From: an uncultured bacterium
GTDB taxonomy: Bacteria > Cyanobacteriota > Cyanobacteriia > Thermostichales > Thermostichaceae
Assembly: GCA_964434865.1 (NCBI GenBank)
Contig: CAYSWV010000011.1
Location: forward strand, 14,611-78,610
Length of the DNA: 64,000 nt
Direction: 5' to 3'
Positions 12,974 through 58,030 of the stretch are shown here, piece by piece. How positions within the stretch are numbered: the first letter of the stretch is position 1; every line of letters begins with the position of its first letter. The position numbers and the translations under genes are program-made. Under the pieces are notes generated by a model. It saw nothing but the letters and a program-made list of their open reading frames with translations. It ran no database searches and had not been told where the DNA came from.

Positions 12974-13038
12974 TGAATCTCCGTGATCTCCTACAAAGTG
13001 AATGAAAAACTGCGAAAGCCTAAGGTCAACCCAGGCTC

Positions 13039-15345: not shown

Positions 15346-15446
15346 CCGATCCCTCGTCAGTGTATTACGGCAGGTGATGTTTGAGTTAGCTAACTTCCGC
15401 AGTTTGGATCAGGTTTATGCCACCAAGCACTGCGGTTAAGGTCGGG

Positions 15447-22912: not shown

Positions 22913-23459
22913 GAACGATAAGCTCAAAGTAGTGGGCCTTGCGGTACGAAGGAGCACCCAATAGTAACACAATATGATCAGCTTGCTGTCCCGACACAAT
23001 CAGTGTTAGAGACCCAAGATGGTTGGAACTTGGCTGAGATTGTCACTGGTTAGGCACTTAATCCTCTCATTAGTTCATACCTCTACTAGGGATGTGAGAT
23101 AAGTAGGTGAGATGCATCATTGACCAAGTTCTGAGCGGGATCTTTTGACGCCGCATTCTAGTTCAACTTAAAGTCTGTAGCCCATAGTATAGTTGCACTG
23201 TACCAGTATAGGAAGTGCTGTAGCAGCATCAAGTCTACATTAAGAGTGGTCAACAAGCATTGCACTAGGCATCATTCACATTTTTTTCACTTCTCCTCAG
23301 TAAATTCAGTACACGTTGGAATAACTCCAGTGCAGCTTGGTTATGTAATTTGGTTATCAGTAATGTTGATCCTATGAAAAGTCTGTCAAGTCATTTGTAA
23401 TACTGCACTCTTTGTTTATCTAGCTAATTTGACTAACTTCTGACTACTGGAGCAAAATT

Positions 23460-27912: not shown

Positions 27913-28270
27913 TCTAAACTGCAAATCGGGATTGAATTGAACTGATCGGAACTTGAATATCCATTGGTTCTTGCTCACTCTATAATTTGTGGTGCTGAGG
28001 GGTGCTGAGGACAAAATGGTGTGAGGACAGAAATTAATGCCTTCAAGTTCCCTAGAGTTCTGAATTATCCTACTCAAAACAAGTTCCAAAAATCTGTTTT
28101 TGATCGTCTTTTGATCGTCGGTGTGAGATCTGCTTAGGCCTAATGTAAGGCGTTAAAGACAAGTGTCTAAAAGAATGAGTCTCATTTGGGCTTCCGTGAT
28201 TCATTTCTGCATCAAAGATAGATCTAGATCCTCTTGAATTTTCACTGAATTGACTTTAGCAAACAATACT

Positions 28271-31236: not shown

Positions 31237-31920
31237 ATGATCGACCAGGTTGACCACCAGCTGCGAGCGTGGGTGTTAACAGTCTTGGGTCCCGCTATGC
31301 CAGTCTCGCTAGCAGCACCTTCTGATTCAAGAGAGGGGCATGGAGTGAGTCTGTACCTTTTAGATGTCAAGCATCAGCCTCGGAGAACTGATAACCAGCA
31401 GATCGTGCTGCATTTGTCTCTCCTGTATCTAGTTACGACCTGGGCTGAAGAACCAGAGGAATCTCACCGACTCCTAGGTTTACTAATTCTGGCTGCATTG
31501 GAAACAGCTGACTTTGAGGTTCAACTTGATCCGATCCCAATTTCAAGCTGGGCTGCTCTTAAAGTCATACCTCAACCAGCTTTTTTAATGCGGTTGCCTT
31601 TGACCTATCGACAGCCTATGGGCAAAGTTCCGCGTGTGAAAACAATGCGACTACAATCCTCAATCCTGACTCAGTGGTACGGTCAAGTCTTAGACCCAAG
31701 TGATCAGCCCATTTCCCAAGCCAAGGTGGAAGTCCCCTCTCTACACTTAGAAACCTACACCAACATTGATGGCAATTTTCAGCTTGTGGCTGTGCCGCAG
31801 GGGGCTCTCATTCAAACCTTGAAAGTCCAGGTTTACGATCAGGACTTCTCAATTACGTTACCTGAACCTGCTACCCCTCATCACCCGATCATTGTTCGCT
31901 TAGAAGCGATGGAGGTCTAA
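31237..31920 (+). CDS. CIS cap/terminator-like protein (DUF4255 / Pvc16-Afp16 N-terminal domain) with C-terminal CarboxypepD_reg-like beta domain
   Basis: N-terminus MIDQVDHQLRAWVLTVLG...VSLAAP...GVSLYLLDV...LSLLYLVTTW fits the DUF4255 pattern. The C-terminus GQVLDPSDQPISQAKVEV...TNIDGNFQLVAVPQG looks like a carboxypeptidase-regulatory fold. Confidence 0.7.
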   Translation: MIDQVDHQLRAWVLTVLGPAMPVSLAAPSDSREGHGVSLYLLDVKHQPRRTDNQQIVLHLSLLYLVTTWAEEPEESHRLLGLLILAALETADFEVQLDPIPISSWAALKVIPQPAFLMRLPLTYRQPMGKVPRVKTMRLQSSILTQWYGQVLDPSDQPISQAKVEVPSLHLETYTNIDGNFQLVAVPQGALIQTLKVQVYDQDFSITLPEPATPHHPIIVRLEAMEV

Positions 31921-33147
31921 ATGCCAACTTATTTGACCCCTGGTGTATATATTGAAGAAGTCTCCTCTGGAACCCGACCTATAGAAGCCGTTGGAACCAG
32001 TACAGCTGGATTTGTAGGTGTAGCACCCAATCCGTCAGCTCATCACCATCAAGTCATTGCCATCAATAACTGGAGTCACTTTCTCCGAGAGTTCGTGTCG
32101 CCAGGATCTGAAAGTACATTCCTGTCATTAGCTGTCTTTGGCTTTTTTACAAATGGTGGCAGCCGTTGTTATGTCGTTAACTTAGGTCAAGATGGAGCTA
32201 TGACAGGGGATAGTCGGGGTCGCAAAGGACTAGACTTACTGGAAGCTATTGAAGACATTGCCATTGTGGCCGCTCCAGGTCTGTCAGATGCAGCGACCTA
32301 TGAAGCATTATTATCCCATTGTGAAAACCTCCACGATCGTGTTGCTATCCTAGATCCCCCTCCCCAGCTACAATCTATTGATCAACTTAAGCAAGTAGCG
32401 ATAGCTGGAGATTCGGCAGGTTCTGAAGGTTTAGCCACAACAGCAGTTACCCCAGGATTACGACCTCGACAGACTGATGGAGGGTATGGGGCGTTTTACT
32501 TTCCCTGGATCACGATTCGAGATCCATTGGCTACGCAGACAATGATTAATGCCCCTCCATCAGGCCATATAGCAGGTATTTACGCTCGCACCGATGCAAC
32601 TCGAGGTGTGCAGAAGGCACCTGCTAATGAGATCATTCGAGGGGTTCTAGATGTCACCTACCCAGTCACCCATGCCGAACAAGGGGAACTCAATCGTAGT
32701 GGTGTCAACTGTATTCGATTATTTGCAGGAGAAGGGATCCGAGTGTGGGGAGCTAGAACCCTAGCAGCAAGCAGTAGTGAATGGCGGTATCTGAACGTAC
32801 GACGCTTATTCAATATGATTGAAGCATCCATTATTAGAAGTACACGGTGGGTTGTCTTTGAACCTAATGCAGCTCCCCTCTGGAAGGCTATTCGCCGGGA
32901 TGTGAGTGCCTTTTTGACATTGTTATGGCGGCAAGGATCTCTAATGGGAGCTAGTCCGGAAGCCGCCTTTTTTGTGCAATGTGATGCCGAAACTAATCCA
33001 CCTGAGGTGATTGATGCTGGCATGGTCATTACTGTGATTGGCATTGCACCGATCAAACCAGCTGAATTTGTCATTTTCAAGATTAGTCAATCAGCCTCAG
33101 CAGCAGAATCTGAAACACCAGGTATGGAGGTAGCTAGCAATGTCTAA
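31921..33147 (+). CDS. Contractile tail sheath protein (Afp2-4/Cis2-like)
   Basis: Canonical N-terminus MPTYLTPGVYIEEV...GTSTAGFVGVAP. C-terminal IRVWGARTL...WRYLNVRRL...VFEPN...KPAEFVIF. Confidence 0.9.
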   Translation: MPTYLTPGVYIEEVSSGTRPIEAVGTSTAGFVGVAPNPSAHHHQVIAINNWSHFLREFVSPGSESTFLSLAVFGFFTNGGSRCYVVNLGQDGAMTGDSRGRKGLDLLEAIEDIAIVAAPGLSDAATYEALLSHCENLHDRVAILDPPPQLQSIDQLKQVAIAGDSAGSEGLATTAVTPGLRPRQTDGGYGAFYFPWITIRDPLATQTMINAPPSGHIAGIYARTDATRGVQKAPANEIIRGVLDVTYPVTHAEQGELNRSGVNCIRLFAGEGIRVWGARTLAASSSEWRYLNVRRLFNMIEASIIRSTRWVVFEPNAAPLWKAIRRDVSAFLTLLWRQGSLMGASPEAAFFVQCDAETNPPEVIDAGMVITVIGIAPIKPAEFVIFKISQSASAAESETPGMEVASNV

Positions 33148-33589
33148 TGGATTACGTACCGGTCATCGAACGGATCCTTACCGAGCTTATAATTTCAAAT
33201 TAGACATTTTAGGTGTCACGGAGGGACATTTTACAGCGTGTAGTGGGCTGGGTATCAAAGTTCATGCTATCCCTTACCGAGAAGGAGGTACCCGTGGTGT
33301 AATTCATCAGCTACCAGGTCGGGTTGCGTATGGGGATGTGACACTCCGATATGGCCTGACTGACTCTCGGTCGCTATGGGACTGGCTGATGAGTGCAGTT
33401 AGTGGCAAGGTGGTCCGGAAAAATGCTTCTGTGCTCTTGATGGCTAATGATGGTGTGACTGAAGTGATGCGGTGGGAGTTAATTGATGCCTGGCCGTCAG
33501 AATGGCGAGGGGCCCCGCTAGATACGTTAGCTCAAGAAGTTGCCATTGAATCTCTGACACTGGTCTTTGAAGAGTTGAAGCGAGCATAA
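33140..33589 (+). CDS. Tail tube protein (Afp1/5, T4 gp19-like)
   Basis: DPYRAYNFKLDILGV..GHFTACSGLG...YREGG. The start overlaps the sheath stop by 8 nt. Confidence 0.9.
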   Translation: MSNGLRTGHRTDPYRAYNFKLDILGVTEGHFTACSGLGIKVHAIPYREGGTRGVIHQLPGRVAYGDVTLRYGLTDSRSLWDWLMSAVSGKVVRKNASVLLMANDGVTEVMRWELIDAWPSEWRGAPLDTLAQEVAIESLTLVFEELKRA

Positions 33590-33594
33590 GTCTC

Positions 33595-34812
33595 ATGAAT
33601 ACCTTTAAGCGACAATTATTACTAGCTATTGCTCACACCTTACAACAATGGGCAAACGCACTCTTGAGCCTGACTGAAGCCTCTAAGTCCAACTGCAATT
33701 TAGAAGTTGGCTCAGTTGGTGGGCCACCTGCTCATTGGGTAGCACGGGTGCAATCGGCAGCCCCCCACCTCTTAGACCCAGACTTGCTTAACTTTACAGT
33801 AAAAGGCCCTCAATCAATCAATAGAGTAGATTTAATTTCAGAGACTGACCCTAACTCACCCATCCTGAAAACATCTATTGATCAACCTCTTAACCTAGCC
33901 CCAGATCAAAGAAGCCACTCACGCTACAGCCATAATCACGATCAGTTTAGTTACTCACTCCTTCAAAAGAGACGACCTCCCCTTCATGATTCTGTACCTC
34001 CACCTGTGACAACAACCCAGTGGGAACCAAGCGAGTACTCCGAGCCTAATGGTCAGGATGATCTTACTCAGCAGACTCATTCTTATAGGCCACCTCCTCC
34101 AATCTTTCAATCACCAGCCTACTCCCATGAATACAACCAGATTCTGGCAGCCGCGGTTCCTACTGTGTCGCCTCAGACCCAATTTCAACAACAGGAGCAG
34201 CAGTCTCTAATACAACAAGAGTCAAACTTAGACCGAACATCCTCTGAAAACTTACCACTCATTACACAGCTAGATCACTCAACGCCTCCTATTGCCATCA
34301 AACTGATCCCTCCTCCGGTAGGTTCAAACAGATCTCATCAAGTCCGATCTAGTCAGTCCTACTCTGAGGTTATCCCCCATGCAAAAGATACACAGATGCC
34401 TCAAAGGGATCGGCCTATCTTACCTGACTCGCTTCCCAAGCAAGTGGCTATCCAGGATAGTTACAATCAGCAAACAATGCCATATCCTGTGCATCAGGTA
34501 CAAGCCATTCGATCGACTGCAGTAAAAACAACCTTGAGGTCTCAACAATCCGGATTAAGCGTTAGCCGCCAATCGCTAGAGCCTGAGCTTTCCACTCACG
34601 ACCCAAAAACTGAACAGCCTGATCTGAATGAGGTATGCCTAGTCAACTATCACCCGTTTGTTACACCTGAGGTGTCACTTGAATCTATGTGGCCTTCACT
34701 GCCAGTAACCACTGATTCTGATCCTGCTACTTTCTGGCCAACCTTTTGGCACGCTCAGGACCATCAACAGATCTTAGACCAAGAACAAAGAGGTCAGCGA
34801 TGGAACGAGTAG
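33595..34812 (+). CDS. Q/P/S-rich low-complexity protein in the tape-measure/assembly position
   Basis: 405 aa. The N-terminal ~30 aa look helical, followed by >300 aa rich in Q, P and S. The C-terminus is aromatic (FWPTFWHAQDHQQ). It sits between the tube and Afp7-like genes, where P2/pyocin tails place the tape measure. Confidence 0.45.
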   Translation: MNTFKRQLLLAIAHTLQQWANALLSLTEASKSNCNLEVGSVGGPPAHWVARVQSAAPHLLDPDLLNFTVKGPQSINRVDLISETDPNSPILKTSIDQPLNLAPDQRSHSRYSHNHDQFSYSLLQKRRPPLHDSVPPPVTTTQWEPSEYSEPNGQDDLTQQTHSYRPPPPIFQSPAYSHEYNQILAAAVPTVSPQTQFQQQEQQSLIQQESNLDRTSSENLPLITQLDHSTPPIAIKLIPPPVGSNRSHQVRSSQSYSEVIPHAKDTQMPQRDRPILPDSLPKQVAIQDSYNQQTMPYPVHQVQAIRSTAVKTTLRSQQSGLSVSRQSLEPELSTHDPKTEQPDLNEVCLVNYHPFVTPEVSLESMWPSLPVTTDSDPATFWPTFWHAQDHQQILDQEQRGQRWNE

Positions 34813-35555
34813 CTTTTTTACTGGAACCTCTGGGACATCGTATTCCCTGTCTACTCAACCCTGAGAGTCTAGAAATTCGACGGTTAGCTGGACTACAGCC
34901 GTGCCGATCTATAACAGGTGAGATTAAAGGCATTGCTGACGATACGCTATTGTACACAGGTGGAGGCCAGACTGAACTTGATCTCAAATTGTTGTTTGAT
35001 ACTTCAGTTGCAGGAGCCTCAGTAGTTACAGAAGATGTGCGTGACCTCACTGGGCCGCTGTGGCAACTAGCAGAAAACCTAGTGAAGCCTGATCAGTCGC
35101 TGCAACCTCCAATTGTCCGGTTTATTTGGGGAAAGAGTTGGAATATTCCGGGTGTAGTAGCTGCTGTCGCTGAACGCTTGGAGGACTTTACCCGTACCGG
35201 TATTCCCCGGAGATCATGGATGCGAATGCGTTTTCTCCGAGTGCTGCCTTCCAAAGCTGAACGACAACCAGTTTCTTCAGTTGATCAAGTACAAGCTATT
35301 CTAGCGATTGAGTCACCAGGTAGTCTCAAACTAGATGTGCCAGATGAGCAAATTCAGCAGTATGAAGTTACTTACAACAGTAGACCTGACACCATCACTT
35401 CTGATCTAGGCTTGCCCCCCTGGTTATGGAAAGCCCTGATGATTTTCAATCACGTTGAGGATCCTTTACACTTGCCCCCTGGACAAATACTGCGAGTTCC
35501 TCCCCTTCCCTATCTATTGCAAATTCATGCCCGATCCTTGGGGGCCATGTCATGA
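34800..35555 (+). CDS. Afp7/Pvc7-like tube-initiator protein with degenerate C-terminal LysM
   Basis: Start at MERVAFLLEPLGHRIPCLLNPESLEIRR. GGGQTELDLKLLFD and PPIVRFIWGKSWNIPGVV...F fit the CIS tube-N / LysM protein pattern. The C-terminal ...PLHLPPGQILRVPP is LysM-like. Confidence 0.7.
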   Translation: MERVAFLLEPLGHRIPCLLNPESLEIRRLAGLQPCRSITGEIKGIADDTLLYTGGGQTELDLKLLFDTSVAGASVVTEDVRDLTGPLWQLAENLVKPDQSLQPPIVRFIWGKSWNIPGVVAAVAERLEDFTRTGIPRRSWMRMRFLRVLPSKAERQPVSSVDQVQAILAIESPGSLKLDVPDEQIQQYEVTYNSRPDTITSDLGLPPWLWKALMIFNHVEDPLHLPPGQILRVPPLPYLLQIHARSLGAMS

Positions 35556-37036
35556 AATCTATCGTAACCCTACCTCCACTTCAGGTTCAGGTTGCTGGAC
35601 ATTCATTGTTGCTAAGTGATCAGTGTCAACTCTTGGAAACTCGGATTCAACAGCGACTCTCCTTACCAACCCTTTGCGAAGTCAGGTTGTTAGTCACTGG
35701 GGATCATCAACCTAACTTAAGCTTGGGATCGGCATTAAATCTATCTCTACCTACACACCCAGCACCATTATTTATAGGACAGATCACAGCTGTTGAACAG
35801 ATTTACACTACCCAATATCAACGAGAGATCCGGATCCGGGGGTATGATCAGCTCTATCAACTGCGGCAAACGTCTACAACTGGTACGTATATCCAAGTGA
35901 CTGTTGCTGAACTGGCACAGGAGATGGTTACCAAGTTAGCCCTGGTGGTAGCTGCAACAGAATCAGGACCCTTGTGGGAACAAATCATTCAAGCTGGCCA
36001 GTCTGATGCTGAGTTACTGAGAACTATAACTGATCGATGTGGTCTTTATTTTACCCTTCGTCAACATGTGCTGCATCTATTCTCACTCAAAGGATTTGGC
36101 CCAGCCCAGCCCCTTCAGTTGGGAGATACCTTGGTTGAAGCTCGGATTGAATCCAACAGCGATCCAGTAACTACAGCGGTTTCGCTATTGGGTTGGAATC
36201 CTCAAAGTGTAGAGACTTACACCAGTCAAGCAGAACAGCTCGTACAACATTATCAGAAAAGCCATTACCAGCAACGCTCGCTGATTAATATGACAGTACA
36301 AGATCAAGGGCAAGCCGATGTATTTGCTCAACGTGAGTTGTCCTTACGTTCAGCTCAAGCGGTAACTTTGTGGGGAGTAGCCGTGGGTCAACCCGCCCTC
36401 CAGCCAGGGACACCTGTTGATATTGATGGAATGCCTGGATCCCCTTGTAGTCGCTTTGTTCTAACGTCGGTTAATCATCTAATCAATCCCCATCAAGGCT
36501 ATATTTCTGAGATTTCTTCAGTTCCTCCTCGATCCCATGATCGTTCTGAAGTGCCGACTCTAGCACCAGGAGTTGTCAGTGATGTTGATGATCCAGAGCA
36601 AGAGGGGCGTGTGAAAGTAACTCTGCCAACACTGCAGGATGTCGAATCTAGCTGGATGAAGGTCCTGTCTCCCTTAGCAGGGATGCAAAAGGGCTGGGTG
36701 GCTTTGCCAAATGTGGAAGATACTGTGTTGGTGATCTTTCCACAGGGTCTTTATACTCAGGGTATTATCCTTGGTTGTTTATATGGACCTGCAACTCAGC
36801 CAGATTGGGGCTTAGATCAGGGGCGGGTATGCCGCTACACTTTTGTAAGTCCAGGTCAACAACAAATACAGATTGATGATACCCAAGGTAAAGTGCGCCT
36901 AGAGAATGTCACGGGCAGTTATGTTGAGTTAAGACCGGAATGCTCAGTTGTTCATGCACAAGGAGATCTACAGTTAGAAGCTCCTAATCATACCGTCTGG
37001 ATTCGTGGACAATCGATTGAGTTCGAGAGAGCCTAA
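35552..37036 (+). CDS. Baseplate hub/spike (phage late control gpD + VgrG/gp5 OB-fold, Afp8-like)
   Basis: 494 aa. gpD-like N-terminal two thirds. C-terminal DDPEQEGRVKVTLP...SWMKVLSPLAG...WVALPNVEDTVLVIF matches the VgrG/gp5 OB-fold pattern. ATGA overlap with the upstream gene. Confidence 0.8.
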   Translation: MKSIVTLPPLQVQVAGHSLLLSDQCQLLETRIQQRLSLPTLCEVRLLVTGDHQPNLSLGSALNLSLPTHPAPLFIGQITAVEQIYTTQYQREIRIRGYDQLYQLRQTSTTGTYIQVTVAELAQEMVTKLALVVAATESGPLWEQIIQAGQSDAELLRTITDRCGLYFTLRQHVLHLFSLKGFGPAQPLQLGDTLVEARIESNSDPVTTAVSLLGWNPQSVETYTSQAEQLVQHYQKSHYQQRSLINMTVQDQGQADVFAQRELSLRSAQAVTLWGVAVGQPALQPGTPVDIDGMPGSPCSRFVLTSVNHLINPHQGYISEISSVPPRSHDRSEVPTLAPGVVSDVDDPEQEGRVKVTLPTLQDVESSWMKVLSPLAGMQKGWVALPNVEDTVLVIFPQGLYTQGIILGCLYGPATQPDWGLDQGRVCRYTFVSPGQQQIQIDDTQGKVRLENVTGSYVELRPECSVVHAQGDLQLEAPNHTVWIRGQSIEFERA

Positions 37037-37038
37037 CT

Positions 37039-37386
37039 ATGTACATCTTGACTGAAAATGCTGTGATGGTCTGTCAACATCGCCTCGGGTATGTGAATCT
37101 AGTTGCATCTCAGAACTGGGTCAAAATGGCAGGACAGAAGGTGTTAGTTGAACGAGATCCTGAGGGTAGACCTATAGGGGGCTGCCCCAACTATGGAGCT
37201 ACTATCAAGCCCTGTACATCAACACTAGCTGTGCACGTTGGCTACTCCAGCTTGATCAAAATTGCAGGTAGACGTGTCTGTTTGGATACAGTAAGAGGCC
37301 TTACAGACGGCACACCTCCTGGGACCGTGGAGTACGAAGTGAGTCAAGCTGGACAGTCTTTAGTTATAGAACGAGGACCATCATGA
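37039..37386 (+). CDS. PAAR-like / DUF4280-like spike tip protein (Afp10 position)
   Basis: 115 aa and Cys-containing (VCQH, GGCPN, KPCTS, RVCLD). It lies directly after the spike gene. Confidence 0.55.
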   Translation: MYILTENAVMVCQHRLGYVNLVASQNWVKMAGQKVLVERDPEGRPIGGCPNYGATIKPCTSTLAVHVGYSSLIKIAGRRVCLDTVRGLTDGTPPGTVEYEVSQAGQSLVIERGPS

Positions 37387-37790
37387 GTCGCTTTAATGCC
37401 TGGCAATTGGTGCCTCGTGACGGGTCATTGGCTGGATTCAGTCTTTCAGCTACAGGAGGGATGGCTACAGTTTCAGATCAGGCTTCTGTAAGGCAAGCCA
37501 TTCTACTCTTACTAGCCACTCGACGAGGGGAGCGGGTCATGCATCCTGAGTATGGCTGTGATCTTCATGATCTAGTGTTTGCACCTAATGATGATACAAC
37601 AGCAGGACTGGCCATTTACTACGTCCGGCAAGCTTTAGAACGTTGGGAACCCCGAGTTACTATTCTGCAACTAGATGCCAGACAAGATCCAGAACAACCA
37701 ACTCAGCTCCAGATTATCCTTGACTATCAATTACGTACCCCGAGTTCGCCGGAACGACTAGTCTTTACCCTGGATCTCACAGGAGGCTAA
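37383..37790 (+). CDS. Baseplate wedge protein gp25/GPW (Afp9-like)
   Basis: SVRQAILLLLATRRGERVMHPEYGCDLHDLVFAPN is the canonical GPW/gp25 motif. Confidence 0.9.
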   Translation: MSRFNAWQLVPRDGSLAGFSLSATGGMATVSDQASVRQAILLLLATRRGERVMHPEYGCDLHDLVFAPNDDTTAGLAIYYVRQALERWEPRVTILQLDARQDPEQPTQLQIILDYQLRTPSSPERLVFTLDLTGG

Positions 37791-37794
37791 CAGC

Positions 37795-40317
37795 ATGTCA
37801 CTCCCCTCGCCTAATTTAGATGATCGGACCTTTGATCAATTGGTGGCAGAGGCCAAACGACGTGTTAGGCAAACCTGTCCCCAGTGGAGTGACTTATCAC
37901 CCAGCGATCCAGGATGGGCTTTGTTAGAGTTATTTGCCTACTTAACCGAGATCATGCTGTATCGGCTTAATCAAGTACCGACTAAAGCTTACATTGAATT
38001 TTTAAAACTGATCGGGGTAACATTACATCCACCTAGTGCGGCCAGTGTAGAGCTTAAGTTTTATTTAACCCAGCCCCGAGAGCATCCGGTCATGATCGAA
38101 AGAGGGACACGAGTGACTGTGGCTCGTGCGAGGGCAGCAGCTAATGCTCCAGTCTTTATCACTGACCATAGCGTAACTATTCCTGCTGGACAAACAGATG
38201 CTAGAGTAACCGCTCATCACTGCGAGCAGATTGAAGCTGAGTTAGTGGGGTATGGGACAGGTCAACCAGGTTTATCCTTACAGGCTCAACAGCCACCTTT
38301 GATAGCACCTACAGGTGATCCACTGGATTTATTAGTTGGGATCGAAACCGACCCAGACGAACTGGATACTCACTACCGCTCAGTGACCCATCAGGGTAGA
38401 TGCTTTCAGATCTGGCAGGAAGTTGAAACCTTTGCCAATCAAGCCCCAACCACATGTATTTACACAGTTGATCGCTATAACGGGCGGATCACGTTTGCCC
38501 CTTGTGTGCCCTCCTCTGCTGACAAGGATCCCTTTTCACCTAAGGTACCGTTAGAAAACCGTGAGGTCCGCTTGTGGTATCGCTGTGGGGGAGGTCCTGC
38601 AGGGAATGTTGCAGCTGATACTTTGACAGTTTTGAAAGATTCACTACCTGGTGTTCATGTGACCAACCCAGAGGCTGCTACTGGGGGCCGAGTGGCTGAA
38701 ACGTTAGATCAAGCGCTGATTCGAGGGCCACTGGAGTTTCGATCACTAGAGAGAGCTGTCACCGCCAGCGATTATGAATTATTGGCACTCAAGAGCTCTG
38801 GAGCAGTCAGCCGGGCCAGAGCCTTCACCCAAAAGCAGTATTGGACTTATGCTCAGCCTGGCACTGTGGAAGTTTTATTAATTCCAACACTACCTGATAA
38901 TTTAACAGCGGCGGTTCAAACCAGTGCAGAACAGTATCAAGCCGCGGCCACCGAAGAGAGTCGGAATCAAGTGCAGCAAGCGTTACACCTGCGTCGTCCA
39001 TTGGGAACAACCTGTTTGGTCCATTGGGCCCGCTTAAAAACAGTAACGGTCAAAGCCCTGATTGTTGTGCATCGAGGTGAAGATCGACAAGCTGTTCAAT
39101 CGAGAGTATTACATCGTTTGTATCAAGCCATTAACCCAACCGTGTGGGAATTTGGACAACCCTTACGCGAAGATCGAATTTATAACATCATTGGTCAAGA
39201 ACCTGGTGTGCGTTACACCGAACAAGTCCGGTTTAGAGTCAATGAAGCGCCTGATCAACACGTCAAACTCCTAACAATGGATCCTAATCAGCCACGGACA
39301 TGCTACGCAGCATCTGGGCACACCCTATTTCGATCTATGAATAACGGAGACAGTTGGGAGTTAGTGAAGCGGTTTCCGGAACAGGTAATCAAAGTCATTG
39401 AAGCTCATCCAGCCATTCCAGGTCTAGTGGCTATAGCCACCTGTCAACCACAAACTTCTCAGCTGCATTTTTCGCAAGACTGTGGTGAAACTTGGGTGGC
39501 TGGCCCTCAAATGGCTTTTCAAGTTGAAGATCTAGCTTGGGTCTTACACTCAGATCGGCGGCCCATTTTACTCTTAGCGACTACAGTAGGGCTTTATGCA
39601 TTGCCAACTTTAGCTGGTGCTGATTTAGTCCAAGTCTTAGTAGATCCGACAGACCAGGATCGGGGGTTTTATGCTGTGGTCACGTCGGAAGATGCTCGTG
39701 GTTTGATCAATGTCGCTGTTGCCGCTCAGGGAATGGGTGGTGTGTATCTCTCTAGTGAAGCAGGGTACTCAGGTACTTTCAGCCCGATTGGGTTGCTAGG
39801 AGAAGATATCCGTGTCTTGGAGATTCAGAAACAGGGTCCACGACAATTTTTATGGGCGGGCAGCTATGTTGCCGGTAATGAAATGGGGCGGGGCTGTTTT
39901 CGGTGGGAATTACCTCACTCAGTAGAAGGGTGGCAGTCGTTTCAGTCAGGCTGGTCGGGTGGTAGTTGTCGGTCGCTGACATTCCGTGAATCCAACGTGA
40001 TCGCTGGTACCTATTTTTCGGGGATTCTCACCCTAGATTCCAGTAGAAGTGAGGCTAACTGGCAGACCTCAACCATGCGATGTGGCTTACCTATTCGGGA
40101 TCAAGAACATAATTTCTATCCGATTGAGGCTGTAGGGTACACGGCTAGTCCTGAGAGTGTCGGGTTGGTTGCTGGTCCTGAAGGGATCTATCGCAGCTTG
40201 GATGAAGGTAGTAGCTACCACTATTGTTCTGGACAAGAGTTCAATGACAAAGTGATGTTGCCAGAGTCTTGGTTGTTTTGTTCTGGACAGCATGAAATTG
40301 AGGTTAAGAGCGAATGA
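37795..40317 (+). CDS. Baseplate J-like protein (Afp11/gp6-like) with ~340-aa C-terminal Asp-box (BNR) propeller-like extension
   Basis: N-terminus LDDRTFDQLVAEAKRR...WSDLSPSDPGWALLELFAY is typical of eCIS gpJ. The C-terminal region contains SMNNGDSW, SQDCGETW and SLDEGSSY (S-x-D-x-G-x-T/S-W/Y). Confidence 0.8.
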   Translation: MSLPSPNLDDRTFDQLVAEAKRRVRQTCPQWSDLSPSDPGWALLELFAYLTEIMLYRLNQVPTKAYIEFLKLIGVTLHPPSAASVELKFYLTQPREHPVMIERGTRVTVARARAAANAPVFITDHSVTIPAGQTDARVTAHHCEQIEAELVGYGTGQPGLSLQAQQPPLIAPTGDPLDLLVGIETDPDELDTHYRSVTHQGRCFQIWQEVETFANQAPTTCIYTVDRYNGRITFAPCVPSSADKDPFSPKVPLENREVRLWYRCGGGPAGNVAADTLTVLKDSLPGVHVTNPEAATGGRVAETLDQALIRGPLEFRSLERAVTASDYELLALKSSGAVSRARAFTQKQYWTYAQPGTVEVLLIPTLPDNLTAAVQTSAEQYQAAATEESRNQVQQALHLRRPLGTTCLVHWARLKTVTVKALIVVHRGEDRQAVQSRVLHRLYQAINPTVWEFGQPLREDRIYNIIGQEPGVRYTEQVRFRVNEAPDQHVKLLTMDPNQPRTCYAASGHTLFRSMNNGDSWELVKRFPEQVIKVIEAHPAIPGLVAIATCQPQTSQLHFSQDCGETWVAGPQMAFQVEDLAWVLHSDRRPILLLATTVGLYALPTLAGADLVQVLVDPTDQDRGFYAVVTSEDARGLINVAVAAQGMGGVYLSSEAGYSGTFSPIGLLGEDIRVLEIQKQGPRQFLWAGSYVAGNEMGRGCFRWELPHSVEGWQSFQSGWSGGSCRSLTFRESNVIAGTYFSGILTLDSSRSEANWQTSTMRCGLPIRDQEHNFYPIEAVGYTASPESVGLVAGPEGIYRSLDEGSSYHYCSGQEFNDKVMLPESWLFCSGQHEIEVKSE

Positions 40318-40853
40318 GACGTACTGAGATTGCGCAGTTACTCCCTACAATCTTTCAACAAACGTTACAAGATGGATCGATTCTCTGGGTTATTCTAGAG
40401 GTGATGGAAGCTATGCACGCTCCTTCTGAAGCCGCCTTAACCCAACTTGACGCTTTTTTTGATCCACGTCGAACACCGGCTACCTGGTTACCCTACCTAG
40501 CCTATTGGCTCAATCTGGATCGACTGTTTAATCCCTCAGCTACATCTGGAGACTCAGCTCCACTACTTTCAACTGGCACAGGACCTCTGCGGGAATTGAT
40601 GGCTCAGGCTGCTTATCTGTCAAATTGGCGGGGCACAGCCCAGGGATTAATTGTATTTTTAGAAACAGCTACCAATACTAAGGGGTTTGGTGTTGAGGAA
40701 CTAGTCTTCAACCCTGAGCATAATCAACTGTGTCCCTTTCACATTAAGGTTGTGGCCCCCTCTTCTACACAAGCTCACCAGGTTTTAATTGAACGGATTA
40801 TTAACTCTGAAAAACCTGCTCATGTGACCTACGAATTAGTATTTGATTCATAA
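40314..40853 (+). CDS. Phage tail protein I-like baseplate protein (P2 gpI / Afp12-like)
   Basis: LLPTIFQ...LLDAFFDPRRTPATWLPYLAYWL...WRGTAQGL fits the TIGR02242-type tail protein pattern. ATGA overlap with gpJ. Confidence 0.7.
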   Translation: MRRTEIAQLLPTIFQQTLQDGSILWVILEVMEAMHAPSEAALTQLDAFFDPRRTPATWLPYLAYWLNLDRLFNPSATSGDSAPLLSTGTGPLRELMAQAAYLSNWRGTAQGLIVFLETATNTKGFGVEELVFNPEHNQLCPFHIKVVAPSSTQAHQVLIERIINSEKPAHVTYELVFDS

Positions 40854-40868
40854 ATAGAGGTTCAAGTA

Positions 40869-42419
40869 ATGGCTCACCTTTTTTCGATATCGACCACTCA
40901 ACCCCAAGCTTATTTGGATGGCCAGGGTCAAGGAGAAGTCTCCTTTGTAGTAACCAATACTACGGCTTATCCAATTAAAGGCCGTCTTGCAATTAAACCC
41001 CTAGGCTCAACTGATCCCAGCTGGCTACGGCTAATTGGAGATACAGAACGAAACTTTGCTAGTAACACAGCAGAACAAATCACTGTAACAATAAACCTGC
41101 CGGCAGACACTCCACTGGGCACTTATAGCTTTCGCTTAGATGTCATCTCTGTTTTGAATCCTGATGAAGACTATACGGAAGGTCCAGCGGTAGCGATGGA
41201 AGTGCAGTCCAGTCCAGTTGAGCAGTCAGCTTTCCCCTGGTGGATTCTGGTGGTTGTGGGTGTTCTAATAACAGTAGGAGGTGTTTTAGCTTATGTCTTT
41301 TGGCCTCGTTCCACCTTTGAGCCTGAAGATTTAGTGGGTCTATCTATTGCTCAGGCTGAGAACATTTTAGAGCAAGAAAGATTAGAGGCTGTGATCAGCA
41401 ATGAATTGATCAGGGTTTGTGATCCAGACTCAGCAACACCTCATCAGGTAGTCTCAGCTAATTACATCAATGACAGTCAAGTTGAAGTTGTTGTGGCCAG
41501 CTGGGATCCACAAGAGTTAGTGGGTTTAACTCAAGATGAAGCTACCCAATGCCTAGATCCACATCAATGGACATTAGCTGTCCAAGATCAGCCGATCATC
41601 CTCTGTGACTCGCTTGAATCTCTGCCTAATCAGATTCTTGAAGTGGGTGACATTGATCAGACACAGGTGGATGTTGTTGTTGCAAGCTGGAATCCTGAAG
41701 AGTTACTAGGAATGCACAAAGATGAGGCCCAAGCCTGCCTAGCAGCTCATGATTTAACATTGACAGCCGCAGAGAAACCCATCACCCTTTGTACTAACGG
41801 CACTCACACTCCTGATCACATTGTTCAGATCCAAGACTCGTCCTCAACTACAGTGAATGTTGTAGTTGAAGCTACCACATCTGTTCAGGTGCCTAGAGTT
41901 AAGGATTTGCCTTATCAGCAAGCTCAGAGACAACTGGAAGAGTGCTCACTGCAATGGTCGATTAACGAAGTCTATCCGTCATTCAGTGCCAGTGATATTG
42001 CTATTGATCCTGGGACCGTAGTTAAACAAACTCACCTGGGACAGACTGTGAACCCTAATCAAGTGATCACTTTAGATGTAGTTGCCAGCAAAACTTTTCA
42101 TAATCCCAGACGCAATAACCAGTTCAATACCTCACTGGGCATATGGCTATCTAACACCAATGGCAATCAGTATTGTAAAGAGCATGGAGGATCCAAGATG
42201 ATTAGCCATACAGTCGGCTGCGGTGAAGACGAAAGCTCCTATGTTGAATTTAAAAATGGTAAGTGGCTTTCTAAAAGTAGTGGGAGTACTAACCAGTGTT
42301 ACGATATCTTCAAATCTATCACTTGTGATGTTGGCATCGATCCGTCTAGATTCCAGCCTGGCGATATTGAACACATAAAGTTGGAAAACTCGCTATTGAA
42401 TAGAATTATTTCTGAATGA
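40869..42419 (+). CDS. Single-pass membrane protein: N-terminal Ig-like domain, TM helix, 4 PASTA-like repeats, Cys-containing C-terminal domain (in the tail-fibre slot)
   Basis: No signal peptide. TM at aa 122-146 (FPWWILVVVGVLITVGGVLAYVFWP). Three 62-aa repeats at aa 151-212, 213-274 and 275-336 (P-E/Q-E-L-V-G-L..DEA..CL....TL......I.LC....P..I......V.VVVASW), plus a fourth PASTA-like unit at aa 340-407. The C-terminal ~110 aa contain four Cys. Confidence 0.6.
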   Translation: MAHLFSISTTQPQAYLDGQGQGEVSFVVTNTTAYPIKGRLAIKPLGSTDPSWLRLIGDTERNFASNTAEQITVTINLPADTPLGTYSFRLDVISVLNPDEDYTEGPAVAMEVQSSPVEQSAFPWWILVVVGVLITVGGVLAYVFWPRSTFEPEDLVGLSIAQAENILEQERLEAVISNELIRVCDPDSATPHQVVSANYINDSQVEVVVASWDPQELVGLTQDEATQCLDPHQWTLAVQDQPIILCDSLESLPNQILEVGDIDQTQVDVVVASWNPEELLGMHKDEAQACLAAHDLTLTAAEKPITLCTNGTHTPDHIVQIQDSSSTTVNVVVEATTSVQVPRVKDLPYQQAQRQLEECSLQWSINEVYPSFSASDIAIDPGTVVKQTHLGQTVNPNQVITLDVVASKTFHNPRRNNQFNTSLGIWLSNTNGNQYCKEHGGSKMISHTVGCGEDESSYVEFKNGKWLSKSSGSTNQCYDIFKSITCDVGIDPSRFQPGDIEHIKLENSLLNRIISE

Positions 42420-42913
42420 ATCGATCTAAGATTGTGATTATAAGTTTAACGGTTTTGGCTCTGGCCTTTGGTTTGAGCATTGGCCTCAGTGGCCTTAACC
42501 TGCATCGCAATGATGAGATTACAGCAGACGATTATGCTCAACGAGGTCAGTTTCCAGAGTGGATCAGCACTATTGGGGATCTAGTCGTCCCTTTCGGTCC
42601 GAGAGTGAAGCAGCTCCCACCGCTTATTGAGATCGACCCACTCTCCCAATCTAACAAACGCATATTGATCAAACCGGCAACAGCTTCTTTTCGAGTAGCT
42701 AGTTTCAAATTAGTCTCAGGCCAAAGGATTAAAATCGATTACCAAGATCAGTCGACCAACGCTGAAACTTATGAGTTAGAAGCACAGAGTTTTTCGTTAC
42801 CCAAGGAGCAGGGGCGAAATCGCCAGTCTGGATCCATCGTAATCCTCTCAGAGGGGGGACAGCTAACCTTAACTTGTTATGGTCACCAGGTTTGTCAGGT
42901 GCAGTTAAATTAA
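42416..42913 (+). CDS. Small membrane-anchored/secreted hypothetical protein, translationally coupled to the PASTA protein
   Basis: 165 aa. N-terminal hydrophobic anchor IVIISLTVLALAFGLSIGL. ATGA overlap with the upstream gene. Confidence 0.45.
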   Translation: MNRSKIVIISLTVLALAFGLSIGLSGLNLHRNDEITADDYAQRGQFPEWISTIGDLVVPFGPRVKQLPPLIEIDPLSQSNKRILIKPATASFRVASFKLVSGQRIKIDYQDQSTNAETYELEAQSFSLPKEQGRNRQSGSIVILSEGGQLTLTCYGHQVCQVQLN

Positions 42914-42940
42914 AGTGTTTTAATCTAAGGCATTGTAATC

Positions 42941-43630
42941 TCAAGCAACAGCACGAACCATAGAGATCAAGGAGCCAATCAGTAGAAACAAGGACCAAAT
43001 TACAGCAAAAATCGCTACTACAATGCCAGCAATAGCATCAGTAATACTAACTAAAAACTCTGGAACAAAGCCATGAAGGATACTAACCACCAAAGTCCCA
43101 ATTAAAGATGTCAAAAGGATGAGAACCAGCCCATTATTTTGAATAAATCGTTGTTGAGCACCTAATAAACAAGCAGCAGCTCCTAACTTTAACATCATAA
43201 TTAAGCTAAGGATAACTTTAGCACCTACAGTATCAAAAGACCCATAAATAGCGAAATAAGCTAGAGTGCCAAAGATCGGTGAAATGAGTAAGGTTACCAT
43301 TAATACTAACAAACCTAACGTGACCAGAATAGTTCTAATGCCAACTATCCCAATCACTAAAGCTGCTATAAAAGTAAGTAAGCCTTGGATTCGACCTTGA
43401 AATCGATGTGAAATCAGAAAGGGTAATCCCATTAGTAATCCAGTAAATAACACTAGACTATCCATTAAAGCCAATGAAGATATTCCATAACCAGAAACCG
43501 GTGCAGCCAGTTCTGCCATAGTTGTTGGAGAGTATTGAGTCAGTAGTAGAGCTGAGATCAATTCCATCAAGACAACAATCATCAATAAGGCAATAGCTAA
43601 AAAGAAAAAAGGCTTGCGGAGGCTTTCCAT
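42941..43630 (-). CDS. Polytopic membrane protein (hypothetical)
   Basis: 229 aa with ~6 hydrophobic helices. It is convergent with the CIS operon. Confidence 0.5.
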   Translation of the reverse strand: MESLRKPFFFLAIALLMIVVLMELISALLLTQYSPTTMAELAAPVSGYGISSLALMDSLVLFTGLLMGLPFLISHRFQGRIQGLLTFIAALVIGIVGIRTILVTLGLLVLMVTLLISPIFGTLAYFAIYGSFDTVGAKVILSLIMMLKLGAAACLLGAQQRFIQNNGLVLILLTSLIGTLVVSILHGFVPEFLVSITDAIAGIVVAIFAVIWSLFLLIGSLISMVRAVA

Positions 43631-43952
43631 ACCTTTAAGGTTTATCTGTAAGACTTATTAATAGTGTCGCAAAAACAGAGTCAAAATTCCAACAAAGTGA
43701 TGGACTAAGAAACTATTTTTATTGATTTCTGCTTTGCTTGTGCCCTCTACCTCTCCGTTTAAATACTGTCATCTTAAACTGAATTCAGACTAACCTGAAC
43801 CCATACGACTTACTCTCAGGATGGCATCTCCGTTATGCCCTTAGCTACTGGGATTGGATGTACCCGTTTTCTTCCCGTTTTTGATCCTCTTTCTCTTACT
43901 TTAGATCCTTACAGTTCAAGCTTGGAAATATCGTTCAGCATAGGTCAAAAGG

Positions 43953-45308
43953 ATGATAGAGACACGGCCTATTCCTAACTCTCAACAGCCAATCCATTGG
44001 CTACAGATTAAACCCACCACTCTGATCACAGCTTTAACTAGCCTAGGGGTTTCAGTACTAGCCTTGATGACTGTGGGCTCATTGGGGCAGCGGTTGCATC
44101 AACTGCAAATTGAAACTGCGTTCGTTGTGCAACCGATGGAGCCAATTATTGCTACAGACTGGGGTACTCTACACCACATTTATGTTCAGGAAGGTGAAAT
44201 TGTACAGGTAGGCCATCCACTAGTCCGAGTCGATCGGGATCTAGCCATCGAAGATGAGATTGCCCGTTTGGAGGGTTGGATTTTAGCTCAAAGAAGAGAA
44301 CGGTTCCGACTTCAAGAGCAACTGCTCACACTTGAACGACAACAGCAGCAGGCCCACCTCAATTTAGAAGCTGCCACCAGTGCCATTGCTCTGGAGCAAC
44401 AACAAATCCCGGCTCGCAGTGCGATTGCTCAATCTCAAGTTGATGCTGCCCGCCAAGAGGTAGATGCCCTAGCTCAGCAACTGAATGTAGCCGAAGCTCA
44501 ACATGATCGACTCAAGGCCCTTTTGGATCAAGGGGCTATTCCTCAAATGGCTTTTGACGAAACGGTTGCTGAGCTTGCCCATTTACAAGGAGCATGGCAT
44601 AAAGCTCAGGAGACACTCACCATTGCTCAAGCTGTTTTGATCGGCACGATACGAGGAGATTTTGTGGAGCAAGATCAGTTACAGGGACAACTCCCCACCC
44701 TCGCGTTACAACGAGATATGGCAGAAAAACGTCTCAAGACTCTCACTGATCAGAGACAAGGTTTAACAGTTCTAATTGAGGACCTCGATCAAGAGATAAC
44801 GACTCTTCAAACCAGGCAAGATCAGCTGTTAGCTCGCCGTGATTTGGGTTCTGAGCTAGCCAAAATCTATGCAGCTCCAGTCACAGGAGTTGTGGCTAAG
44901 ATCTTGCGCTCACCAGGTAACTCCGTCAGTCGTGGAGCCACTCTAGTAGTTGTGCAGCATCAGAAAGATCAGCCTCAAATCACAGCCTACCTAACTCATG
45001 ATCAAGCTCAACAATTGGCCCTAGAGCAACCTGCCTCAATTTATATCCCTACAACTGGACAAACGTATCCCGCCCATATATCAAAGATTGATTGGACTGG
45101 TGGTCGAGTAGCTGATGCTCTTGATCCACTAGCACCTACTTGGAGCATTGATCCGTTGGTTCCCCCATTGCCTGTACAGGTTCATCTCACTATTCAACAT
45201 AATAATCTTGACATACCCAACGGATCTCCAGTTGTTGCCACTTTAGAGAAGCGTCAGAGTGTAGTACAACGACTTCAGCAGGGCTTTCAACTCAGCCGCC
45301 GTTACTAG
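43953..45308 (+). CDS. HlyD-family membrane-fusion (periplasmic adaptor) protein
   Basis: N-terminal TM. Lipoyl-like VQEGEIVQVGHPLVRVD. A long Q/L/A-rich coiled coil. C-terminal AAPVTGVVAKILRSPGNSVSRGATLVVV. Confidence 0.65.
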   Translation: MIETRPIPNSQQPIHWLQIKPTTLITALTSLGVSVLALMTVGSLGQRLHQLQIETAFVVQPMEPIIATDWGTLHHIYVQEGEIVQVGHPLVRVDRDLAIEDEIARLEGWILAQRRERFRLQEQLLTLERQQQQAHLNLEAATSAIALEQQQIPARSAIAQSQVDAARQEVDALAQQLNVAEAQHDRLKALLDQGAIPQMAFDETVAELAHLQGAWHKAQETLTIAQAVLIGTIRGDFVEQDQLQGQLPTLALQRDMAEKRLKTLTDQRQGLTVLIEDLDQEITTLQTRQDQLLARRDLGSELAKIYAAPVTGVVAKILRSPGNSVSRGATLVVVQHQKDQPQITAYLTHDQAQQLALEQPASIYIPTTGQTYPAHISKIDWTGGRVADALDPLAPTWSIDPLVPPLPVQVHLTIQHNNLDIPNGSPVVATLEKRQSVVQRLQQGFQLSRRY

Positions 45309-45378
45309 CATAAGCTGATTGATCTACCACTCAATCATAAATCAACTAGGGACAGAGCTTGCAGTGAGGAACGACCTG

Positions 45379-46638
45379 ATGGTTTTATTTCTGATGTCCT
45401 TGACAGGTGTGCTTCTGGTAGCAACCATCGCCTCTCAATTTTCCGATCGATTTGCTCAACGTCGTCAACATATTCAGTGGCGGGTACATGTCAATGGCAT
45501 TCGCGGCAAGTCAACTGTCACTCGCTATGTCAGCGCCATATTTCGAGTAGCTGGCTATCATACTTTTGGCAAAACAACGGGAACAGCAGCCCGTATCCTA
45601 CTACCCAATGGTATGGATTTTGACTTTGGTCGCAAGGGGGAAGCAGACATTAATGAGCAGGTCACCATCCTAAACCAATTTATGCAACAAGGAGCTGAAG
45701 CTGTAGTCATGGAATGCATGGCTGTTAACCCAGCTTATGCTGAATGGCTAGAGCGGAAAGTGATGCAAGCCCACATCGGCATTATTACTAACGTTCGTCT
45801 GGATCACACTGACTACATGGGTGAAACACTACCTGAAATTGCTCAATCACTCGCAGTGACAATACCCACCAGGGGGCTTTTCATTACCTCAGAAACCAAC
45901 CCGGAACTCCTACAAATTTTAGCTGAACAGGCCACTGCAAGAGGATCTCAACTGTTAACGGCTCATGCTAATTTGATCACTCCAGAGGATATGCAGGGAT
46001 TTGACCACTTTGCTATTGAGGAAAATGTAGCTATAGGTTTGAGAGTGGCTCAGTTTTTGAAAGTTCCTCGAAACTTGGCCCTGCAAGCTATGCAAACAGC
46101 GGTTCCTGATCCAGGCGCATTTACAGTCCAGCATCTTGAATTCCAAGGATATTCAATAGCTTGGGCTAATCTCTTTGCTGTCAATGATCGCGAAAGCTTT
46201 ATCTTCATTTGCAATCGTTTATTTCAGCAATACCCTCATCATCATAGGGTTATCATTCTCAACAATCGTCATGATCGACCGACTCGAGTTGAGTTGTTCG
46301 CTCGCATAGCTCAGGATCTCAAGTTTGAGCGAGTAATTACTTTTGGAGACTATGAGGCAGGTGTCAATGCTATGTTTCCGGCTGACCCCAATTGTGTCAT
46401 CAACCTGGGTAACTCTACCCCCTACAAGTATGCACAAGGTGAGGATCTACTCAGCCGTATGATTGCAGATTTAAAGGCACAGCCCATTTTGTTGATGGGT
46501 ACTGTCAATATCCACACACACCAGGCTGAGACCCTGCTGCACTTTTTAGCTGATGTTCCCGACTCAAAGGTTCAACAAACCTTAGAACCTGTTAGCTGCC
46601 TTACGGCCCCTCCCGGGTTATATAGAGATCTTGGTTAA
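45379..46638 (+). CDS. pgsB: Poly-gamma-glutamate synthase PgsB/CapB (Mur-ligase-like amide ligase)
   Basis: VHVNGIRGKSTVTRY, GKTTGTAAR, ECMAVNPAY and PDPGAF are all collinear with B. subtilis PgsB as I remember it. The N-terminal TM is as in PgsB. ATG at 45379 is preferred over TTG at 45319. Confidence 0.85.
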   Translation: MVLFLMSLTGVLLVATIASQFSDRFAQRRQHIQWRVHVNGIRGKSTVTRYVSAIFRVAGYHTFGKTTGTAARILLPNGMDFDFGRKGEADINEQVTILNQFMQQGAEAVVMECMAVNPAYAEWLERKVMQAHIGIITNVRLDHTDYMGETLPEIAQSLAVTIPTRGLFITSETNPELLQILAEQATARGSQLLTAHANLITPEDMQGFDHFAIEENVAIGLRVAQFLKVPRNLALQAMQTAVPDPGAFTVQHLEFQGYSIAWANLFAVNDRESFIFICNRLFQQYPHHHRVIILNNRHDRPTRVELFARIAQDLKFERVITFGDYEAGVNAMFPADPNCVINLGNSTPYKYAQGEDLLSRMIADLKAQPILLMGTVNIHTHQAETLLHFLADVPDSKVQQTLEPVSCLTAPPGLYRDLG

Positions 46639-46645
46639 TGTCACC

Positions 46646-57964: not shown

Positions 57965-58030
57965 GGTGAGGAGTGAAGAGAAAAAGCTCTGGAGTCGAAA
58001 CACGGCAAGACGCCTGGGGCTTTTTCTTTC
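57965..58030 (+). ncRNA. Yfr2-family-like sRNA candidate, copy 1
   Basis: 5' GGUGAGGAGUGAA, then a bulged hairpin GCUCUGGAGUC-GAAACACGGCAA-GACGCCUGGGGC, followed by UUUUUCUUUC. Confidence 0.45.

Follow-up and report, generated by a model that had tools for sequence, protein, structure and literature searches.

A candidate membrane adaptor with PASTA-type repeats in the tail-fibre slot of a compact cyanobacterial contractile injection system

How contractile injection systems (CISs) other than the type VI secretion system (T6SS) meet a membrane, and what triggers their firing, is an open question for which three unrelated case studies, Cis13, CisA and Hbor_38620, are available. Here we describe a protein of 516 amino acids (aa), X516, whose family would add a fourth and much more widespread solution, with thousands of members in at least five phyla. 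Its gene lies at 40869..42419 (+) of a 64,000-nucleotide stretch of DNA from an uncultured cyanobacterium (contig CAYSWV010000011.1, positions 14,611 to 78,610; hereafter the window). It is found directly 3' of the genes for a Baseplate_J/Cis11-like wedge protein (gpJ, 840 aa; 37795..40317, +; PF04865, 1.1e-17) and a Tail_P2_I/Cis12-like baseplate adaptor (gpI, 179 aa; 40314..40853, +; PF09684, 25.9 bits against a cut-off of 20.6). A first-pass annotation, made from the DNA alone, had placed X516 directly after gpI in the tail-fibre slot, and the Pfam matches of the two baseplate proteins bear this out.

Cis13 (All3316) of the thylakoid-anchored CIS (tCIS) of Anabaena has a fibre-like role. 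Its N-terminus binds the baseplate beside the C-terminal extension of Cis11, and its transmembrane (TM) helix at aa 122-154 anchors the particle, such that truncation of the helix sets particles free (PMC8894136). CisA (SCO4242) of Streptomyces coelicolor is a bitopic protein with its N-terminus inside the cell, encoded in the slot 'that usually encodes tail fibers' and required for contraction and firing; its N-terminal 285 aa are largely unstructured and its C-terminal domain is like substrate-binding proteins (PMC12237407). Hbor_38620 is the putative anchor, with six TM segments, of a haloarchaeal T6SS-like CIS, and its presence correlates with membrane attachment (PMC11566945). The fibres of extracellular CISs (eCISs) are encoded downstream of Tail_P2_I and Baseplate_J and join a conserved anchor, catalogued as five N-terminal types (eBAP1-5, where eBAP5 is DUF6519), to variable glycan-binding C-terminal modules, often with several fibres per locus (PMC12923769). 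Neither 'transmembrane' nor 'PASTA' occurs in the main text of that catalogue, and our search of the literature found no paper pairing 'PASTA' with 'contractile injection'.

As judged by sequence comparison, the closest solved CIS to that of the window is the Streptomyces cytoplasmic CIS (CISSc). The nearest solved structure for the sheath protein is 8bky/9gtp (E 1e-107) and that for gpJ is Cis11 of 9gtp (E 1.3e-58), while gpI weakly matches Streptomyces Cis12 (9gtp chain E, E 7.6e-4). X516 resembles CisA in being a single-pass protein, with a cytoplasmic N-terminus and an extracytoplasmic C-terminal part as we infer below, that is encoded directly after the baseplate genes of a CISSc-related cluster. 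Compared by description, it differs from CisA in having a compact Ig-like N-domain and PASTA-type repeats, and its family differs further in occurring as one to six paralogs with swapped ectodomains and in travelling with two other membrane proteins, termed here Y165 and Z229. The likeness to Cis13 (PDB 7b5h) is of another kind: both proteins are cyanobacterial and encoded with baseplate genes, and their TM helices nearly coincide (aa 122-154 and 122-146); however, going by the reported location of its TM segment, Cis13 extends little past the helix, in contrast to X516 with its ectodomain of 370 aa. The baseplates also differ, since the window system has a short gpI, no Cis12 extension and no Cis19 crown. 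When X516 was searched against all PDB sequences, 7b5h included, no CIS chain was found (phmmer E <= 1; profile search E <= 10).

Domain anatomy of X516 and its family

The stop codon of gpI lies 16 bases 5' of the X516 start, and AGAGG is found 8 nt ahead of the X516 ATG. The N-terminus of X516 is not hydrophobic and there is no signal peptide. Residues 1-115 (40869..41213, +) were assigned to an Ig-like beta-sandwich N-domain from AlphaFold2 (AF2) modelling, fold matches and conserved columns; the single-sequence model of this region has a pLDDT of about 70-86, and the motifs FTVTN, FRLD and PDEDYTEGP are conserved. The sole hydrophobic stretch of the protein is FPWWILVVVGVLITVGGVLAYVFW, at about aa 122-145. 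It gives a Kyte-Doolittle peak of 2.69 at aa 126-144 and is helical over aa 124-144 in the single-sequence AF2 model, and it was assigned as a single TM helix at aa 122-146 (FPWWIL...; 41232..41306, +). The reading frame, the hydropathy profile and AF2 agree on the arrangement that the first-pass annotation had proposed, namely an Ig-like N-domain and one TM helix without a signal peptide. The single-sequence model of the whole protein is usable for aa 1-145 only, as the pLDDT is below 50 in the ectodomain, including its C-terminal domain.

The N-domain has no significant Pfam family and NCBIfam likewise has no model for it; the only matches to these libraries, to GEVED, NPCBM_assoc and MG2-type Ig, were below threshold. 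In fold searches it came closest to generic sandwiches of the Ig-like, PapD, MG and MSP types, and no CIS or phage attachment domain could be identified among the 50 best matches shown per library. Searches of PDB sequences with X516 and with the N-domain profile returned stray matches to the TM helix only. The domain also stands apart from the catalogued eCIS anchors: Pfam scans, whether of X516 or of the N-domain alone, gave no match to DUF6519 (eBAP5), and eBAP1-4, by their described sizes (~50 aa and helical, or ~200 aa), differ from the 115-aa beta-sandwich of X516 (PMC12923769). A further difference from the eBAP fibres is that in X516 a TM helix separates the anchor from the binding part.

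A word-indexed search recovered five relatives of X516, all of which run from N-domain to FPWWIL helix to PASTA units. We then scored a profile of the N-domain plus TM helix against 1.84 billion representative proteins (50% identity), which gave 2,432 representatives at E <= 1e-3, 1,908 at E <= 1e-10 and 568 at E <= 1e-30. Among the 150 matches listed, the domain starts at residue 1-22 in 149 and at residue 62 in the other one, and total lengths among the matches listed range from 136 to 988 aa. As far as database models go, the family is without a Pfam or NCBIfam entry, and source names are generic or 'hypothetical'. Pfam recognises PASTA in 69 of the 134 top members; ricin-B, B-lectin, LamG, tectonin, CBM96, PAN, PD40 and substrate-binding-protein domains make up other ectodomains. 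Paralogs encoded at the same locus share their N-domain in all 41 pairs compared (median identity 69%), and 30 of these 41 pairs have no detectable similarity between their ectodomains. A conserved N-terminal end with swapped binding ends is the signature of baseplate-attached fibres.

The family also bears on topology. Of 153 members, 136 contain one hydrophobic helix and no more, and its median starting position is residue 126. Cysteine density is 0.10 per 100 aa before the helix and 1.2 per 100 aa after it, a twelvefold difference; 83 members have an even number of ectodomain cysteines, 7 an odd number and 46 none. In X516 itself all 10 cysteines follow the helix. Lysine and arginine are slightly richer on the N-terminal side of the helix across the family (2.13 before against 1.74 after). 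Because the cysteine asymmetry fits disulfide-bonded extracytoplasmic domains behind a cytoplasmic N-domain, the family-wide pattern argues for an N-in/C-out topology of X516; this is a statistical argument, and the best evidence available on the point. It can be seen that both the cysteine asymmetry and the mild N-side excess of basic residues fit the earlier proposal that the N-domain is cytoplasmic and the repeats lie outside.

The ectodomain begins with three PASTA-like repeats of 62 aa at aa 151-336 (151-212, 213-274 and 275-336; 41319..41876, +), recognised by a shuffle test and partial profile matches. These are followed by a PASTA domain, repeat 4, at aa 337-408 (41877..42092, +; PF03793) and by an orphan C-terminal domain with four cysteines at aa 409-516 (42093..42419 including the stop codon, +). 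The glycine of the (L)VGL motif recurs every 62 residues, at aa 157, 219 and 281, and that of repeat 4 lies ~65 residues further on, so that the annotated series of three 62-aa repeats and a fourth unit was recovered. Repeats 1-3 are mutually similar (local alignment z = 8.6-23.7; none of 2,000 shuffles reached the observed score), and repeat 4 has no pairwise similarity to them (z about 0). Tandem Repeats Finder reported no array at the DNA level in the X516 gene, and the repeats are therefore old.

The same annotation had called all four repeats PASTA, and this holds for repeat 4 alone. At the PF03793 gathering cut-off of 23.2 bits, repeat 4 (aa 339-404) passes, at 45.9 bits when all of X516 is scanned and at 30.5 bits on its own, repeat 1 gives a partial match below the cut-off (14.9 bits, E 0.026), and repeats 2 and 3 are not matched by PF03793. 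A PASTA hidden Markov model built from the family with X516 left out matched the strand+helix half of repeats 1-4 at 10.5, 1.0, 2.7 and 21.8 bits, respectively. The X516 repeats align over their full length and in register with 16 PASTA units of the relatives, apart from an insertion of 5 residues and a deletion of 7. An AF2 model of repeat 2, computed from a 20-row alignment of repeats that held true PASTA units, has a pLDDT of 86.5 and consists of a helix plus three strands; 9 of its 12 top PDB matches are PASTA domains (PknB, PonA2, PrkC and PBP2x) at TMq 0.54-0.66, with Foldseek E-values (E >= 0.12) that are not significant for so small a domain. We conclude that, by profile and model, repeats 1-3 are best described as divergent and PASTA-like.

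In its general plan, a cytoplasmic domain, one TM helix and tandem extracytoplasmic PASTA units, X516 is like the PknB/PrkC/Stk1 kinases and the PASTA-containing penicillin-binding proteins. It is unlike them in having no kinase or transpeptidase domain, in the divergence of three of its four repeats and in its orphan cysteine-rich domain at the end. The NCBIfam model PknB_PASTA_kin aligns with aa 277-404 by its PASTA end only (37.1 bits against a cut-off of 450), and no kinase family matched X516. Repeats 2 and 3 contain one cysteine pair each and repeat 1 a single cysteine. The last 108 aa contain four more, at 436, 451, 477 and 486, matching the four that had been noted in the last ~110 aa. 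When the ectodomain alone (aa 147-516) was searched against 5.8 billion proteins, it found only X516 itself. A 'Bubble protein' identity for the C-terminal domain was disregarded, as the match was below threshold (E 0.012).

Genomic context and membrane partners

A scan of one genome per species yielded 27 independent loci from Acidobacteriota, Actinomycetota (Thermoleophilia), Chloroflexota, Cyanobacteriota and Gammaproteobacteria, and these were compared with the window by tblastn with all of its CIS proteins. The loci most closely related to that of the window are those of Xenococcaceae and Leptolyngbya. In 22 of the 27, drawn from all five phyla, one to five N-domain paralogs directly follow the Baseplate_J and Tail_P2_I genes, which confirms the co-occurrence with baseplate genes. 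Two further loci end at a contig edge. Wherever upstream DNA was covered, the order is shared: cap, sheath, tube, an ORF without assigned identity, CIS_tube, VgrG, orf115, gp25, Baseplate_J and Tail_P2_I. In one metagenome locus (L001) six paralogs stand side by side, some of them consisting of the TM helix only and one with multiple TM segments.

At its C-terminus the gpJ protein of the window is extended by ~360 aa (aa ~480-840) relative to Streptomyces Cis11 (9gtp), the alignment ending at aa 479. The extension shows a weak Sortilin-Vps10 (propeller-like) match and is kept in all syntenic loci, which makes up part of the 40-60% full-length identity of gpJ in those related loci that have an intact gene. 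The N-domain of X516 may dock on this extension.

X516 is followed by Y165 (165 aa; 42416..42913, +), whose start overlaps the X516 stop via ATGA. This bitopic protein has one hydrophobic segment at its N-terminus (aa 6-24), preceded by MNRSK, and a conserved pair of cysteines near its C-terminus (154 and 160), so that the annotated coupling of X516 to a membrane-anchored ORF of this length is upheld. Homologs that share the N-terminal TM segment and the C-terminal cysteine pair adjoin X516-type genes in eight of the loci scanned by tblastn (L003, L005-L009, L014 and L029), and a homolog is also found in Leptolyngbya sp. AN02str (L030; 34% identity, E 2e-34). In high-GC loci a non-homologous small TM protein occupies the position of Y165. 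The 154-aa protein at this position in L001 was considered as a homolog and rejected, as it has no similarity to Y165 and is a positional analogue only.

A third membrane protein, Z229 (229 aa; 42941..43630, -), which the first-pass annotation did not mention, is predicted to cross the membrane six times, and its gene converges with the CIS operon. Its counterpart at the equivalent place in L001 is 42% identical (E 1e-42). Homologs follow X516-type genes in 20 loci, on either strand and with 38-52% identity where the gene is intact, and one is present in every locus whose downstream DNA is covered. No Pfam or NCBIfam model matched Z229, and its family of 346 clusters at 90% identity is 'hypothetical' throughout except for two JGI labels of 'VanZ family protein'. 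Z229 is like Hbor_38620 in its six predicted TM segments and its conservation in CIS clusters; compared by description, Hbor_38620 has a cytoplasmic domain of ~150 aa and sits upstream of its cluster, whereas Z229 is almost wholly embedded in the membrane.

In Leptolyngbya sp. AN02str (JBNXVR010000013.1; 10001-13111) the homologs of X516, Y165 and Z229 are adjacent despite a strand rearrangement, with the Y165 homolog on the strand of the Z229 homolog and convergent with the X516 homolog (391 aa, three PASTA-like units); the strain may be an isolate suited to work on the system. We conclude from gene order and homology that the conserved membrane module is a trio of X516, Y165 and Z229 and not a pair.

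Other genes were noted beside the module. In L001 (9754-10914, -) and eight further loci (for example L027, 12667-13788), the membrane module is followed by a multi-TM protein of ~380 aa with a HEAIH (HExxH) motif, which has no Pfam family, is absent from the window and could be an effector or a processing protease. The stretch 11171-15509, downstream of the high-GC CIS locus in L001, encodes an Endonuclease_NS protein and two caspase-like Peptidase_C14 proteins, which may act as effectors or in cell death. In the window the CIS module is immediately followed at 43953-47647 (+) by an HlyD-family gene and then CapB-like (Mur_ligase_M) and CapC-like genes, likely a set for poly-gamma-glutamate synthesis and export; an HlyD/AprE-type gene also adjoins the Z229 homolog of L031.

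Possible roles of the X516 module

X516 is probably a CIS membrane adaptor in the fibre slot. As such it would belong to a known kind of protein, from whose published examples it differs in domain make-up; what stands out is the breadth of its family and the lack of any Pfam or NCBIfam model. The explanation that we favour, and hold to be reasonably probable, is that it replaces the tail fibre with a protein that spans the membrane, and that together with Y165 and Z229 it forms a membrane platform for the compact CIS. The cytoplasmic Ig-like N-domain would dock on the gpJ/gpI wedge, the likely sites being the gpI adaptor, the C-terminal extension of gpJ or both, and the helix would cross the membrane. 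Outside the cytoplasm a disulfide-bonded ectodomain, made up of a PASTA-type rod and a cysteine-rich head, would grip a glycan of the envelope, most plausibly peptidoglycan. This would keep the baseplate at a membrane of the producer itself, most likely the cytoplasmic one, and contraction would drive the spike into or through it. By analogy with the Streptomyces CIS and CisA, the most likely outcome would be stress-linked firing from within the cell and not the release of free particles. The observations made in the first-pass annotation were confirmed, and its interpretation, that X516 and Y165 as a pair tether the baseplate to a membrane or to peptidoglycan, or sense wall damage to trigger firing, is partly supported: comparative data and the precedents of Cis13 (PMC8894136) and CisA (PMC12237407) strongly favour a tether, peptidoglycan binding and wall sensing are putative, and the pair has to be widened to include Z229.

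Several points weigh against this platform or some part of it. Repeats 1-3 do not reach the Pfam PASTA threshold, and the fold test of repeat 2 was partly circular owing to the PASTA units in its alignment. Some PASTA domains do not bind muropeptide. PASTA is not obligatory in the family, which weakens a peptidoglycan-specific reading, and the roughly one half of the family that is non-PASTA or lectin-type, together with the loci that have many paralogs, suggests recognition of a target no less than attachment to the producer's own wall. The charges flanking the X516 helix are uninformative, with no lysine or arginine before it and one after. For a cyanobacterium the thylakoid, which is free of peptidoglycan, is a further candidate for the membrane in question. 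Finally, in 3 of the 27 loci no CIS gene lies closer than 10 kb to the N-domain gene.

The main rival to the membrane platform proposed above, which we rate as possible if clearly the less likely, is a mode of action like that of the T6SS, in which X516, Y165 and Z229 would fix the CIS to the cytoplasmic membrane and wall for outward firing into neighbours or the medium. The variable ectodomains would then anchor to the wall, as do the peptidoglycan-binding parts of the T6SS membrane complex, or sense contact. The anatomy and synteny of X516 fit this equally well, the conserved six-TM partner recalls Hbor_38620 (PMC11566945), and the presence of more than one paralog at a locus, with variable lectin-type ectodomains, suggests that different glycans are recognised. 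However, TssJ, TssL and TssM have no Pfam or NCBIfam match in X516, Y165 or Z229, no AAA+ ATPase, be it of the Cis15 or the recycling type, is encoded in the entire 64 kb, no toxin-immunity pair was recognised beside the CIS cluster of the window, and the closest solved relative, the Streptomyces CIS, acts inside the producer cell. An improbable alternative is thylakoid anchoring as in the Anabaena tCIS, with the X516 ectodomain in the lumen and the CIS displayed after ghost-cell formation. The window is cyanobacterial, as the Cyano-1 RNA and the closest loci (Xenococcaceae and Leptolyngbya) indicate, and the helix lies almost where that of Cis13 does (PMC8894136). The cysteine pattern, too, would suit the lumen. 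The thylakoid lumen is an oxidising compartment. Set against this, the module also occurs in non-photosynthetic Acidobacteriota, Actinomycetota, Chloroflexota and Gammaproteobacteria, X516 has no sequence relation to any 7b5h chain, the baseplate is of the other type described above, and PASTA would be without a known ligand in the lumen.

We regard it as very unlikely that X516 is an ordinary receptor-binding fibre of an extracellular CIS, with its hydrophobic stretch buried in the fibre core or with the fibre stored in the membrane, and acting after lysis through PASTA or lectin domains that bind target cells. X516 does sit in the fibre slot, and a conserved N-terminal end with variable glycan-binding C-terminal ends is the classic fibre pattern (PMC12923769), but such a fibre would account neither for a hydrophobic helix of 23-24 residues with tryptophan and basic flanks in 136 of the 153 family members, nor for the strict cysteine asymmetry across it, and it would leave two obligatory integral membrane partners and an N-domain other than DUF6519 (eBAP5) to be explained. 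Least credible of all is that X516 is a cell-wall PASTA protein that happens to neighbour the CIS. The three loci without nearby CIS genes would allow for this; however, because the N-domain+TM family follows Baseplate_J and gpI in 22 of the 27 loci, X516 is not a chance neighbour of the CIS, and the tight stop-start spacing and the ATGA overlap with the next gene likewise speak against coincidence.

A bolder proposal, which we rate as possible but unlikely, is that the X516, Y165 and Z229 trio marks a separate and widespread class of CIS, present in soil and aquatic bacteria from at least five phyla, whose 'tail fibres' would be integral membrane proteins. Their periplasmic PASTA or lectin ectodomains would report the state of the wall, or contact across it, to the cytoplasmic baseplate, and wall damage or phage attack would trigger firing. 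If this were true, the system would be a suicide or defence device coupled to wall integrity, and it would explain in mechanistic terms what sets off the firing of cytoplasmic CISs. As the ligand class of PASTA is known, the trigger hypothesis is directly testable, and the survey names tractable hosts in Acidobacterium sp. S8 and Leptolyngbya sp. AN02str. The X516 family would further serve as a sequence marker for predicting membrane-bound CIS action from genomes.

The CIS island and other genes of the window

The compact CIS island occupies ~12.4 kb of the + strand of the window (31237-43630) and is flanked by ordinary chromosomal genes. Its core block, from cap to gp25, spans 31237..37790. 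All of its genes are on the + strand, and Pfam matches identify the cap (from 31237; Pvc16_N), the sheath (from 31921), the tube protein gp19 (from 33140), a CIS_tube protein (from 34746), a VgrG-like spike with GPD and base_V domains (from 35552) and gp25 (from 37383). Two ORFs in the block have no family match, one of 405 aa at 33595-34812 and the 115-aa orf115 at 37039-37386, which is 48-72% identical across related loci. No DUF4157-type effector was found among the ORFs scanned across the 64 kb, and a scan for promoters and terminators over 40200-44000 gave nothing that exceeded the expectation from shuffled sequence.

A few kb upstream of the island, at 27130-29425 (+), a DUF2267 protein is followed by an eRF1-like protein (baeRF family 7/3, 3e-47); baeRF domains are usually tied to conflict systems. 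Further upstream lie a GLIC/ELIC-type pentameric ligand-gated ion channel (19206-20201, +; Neur_chan_LBD 1.7e-24, Neur_chan_memb 7.4e-14) and a 933-aa protein (20198-22999, -) that is recognisable only at its C-terminus, where it has an Rce1-like CAAX protease domain. The Cyano-1 small RNA (Rfam RF01701) is encoded at 57967-58029 (+), where it scores 45.1 bits against a gathering score of 41.

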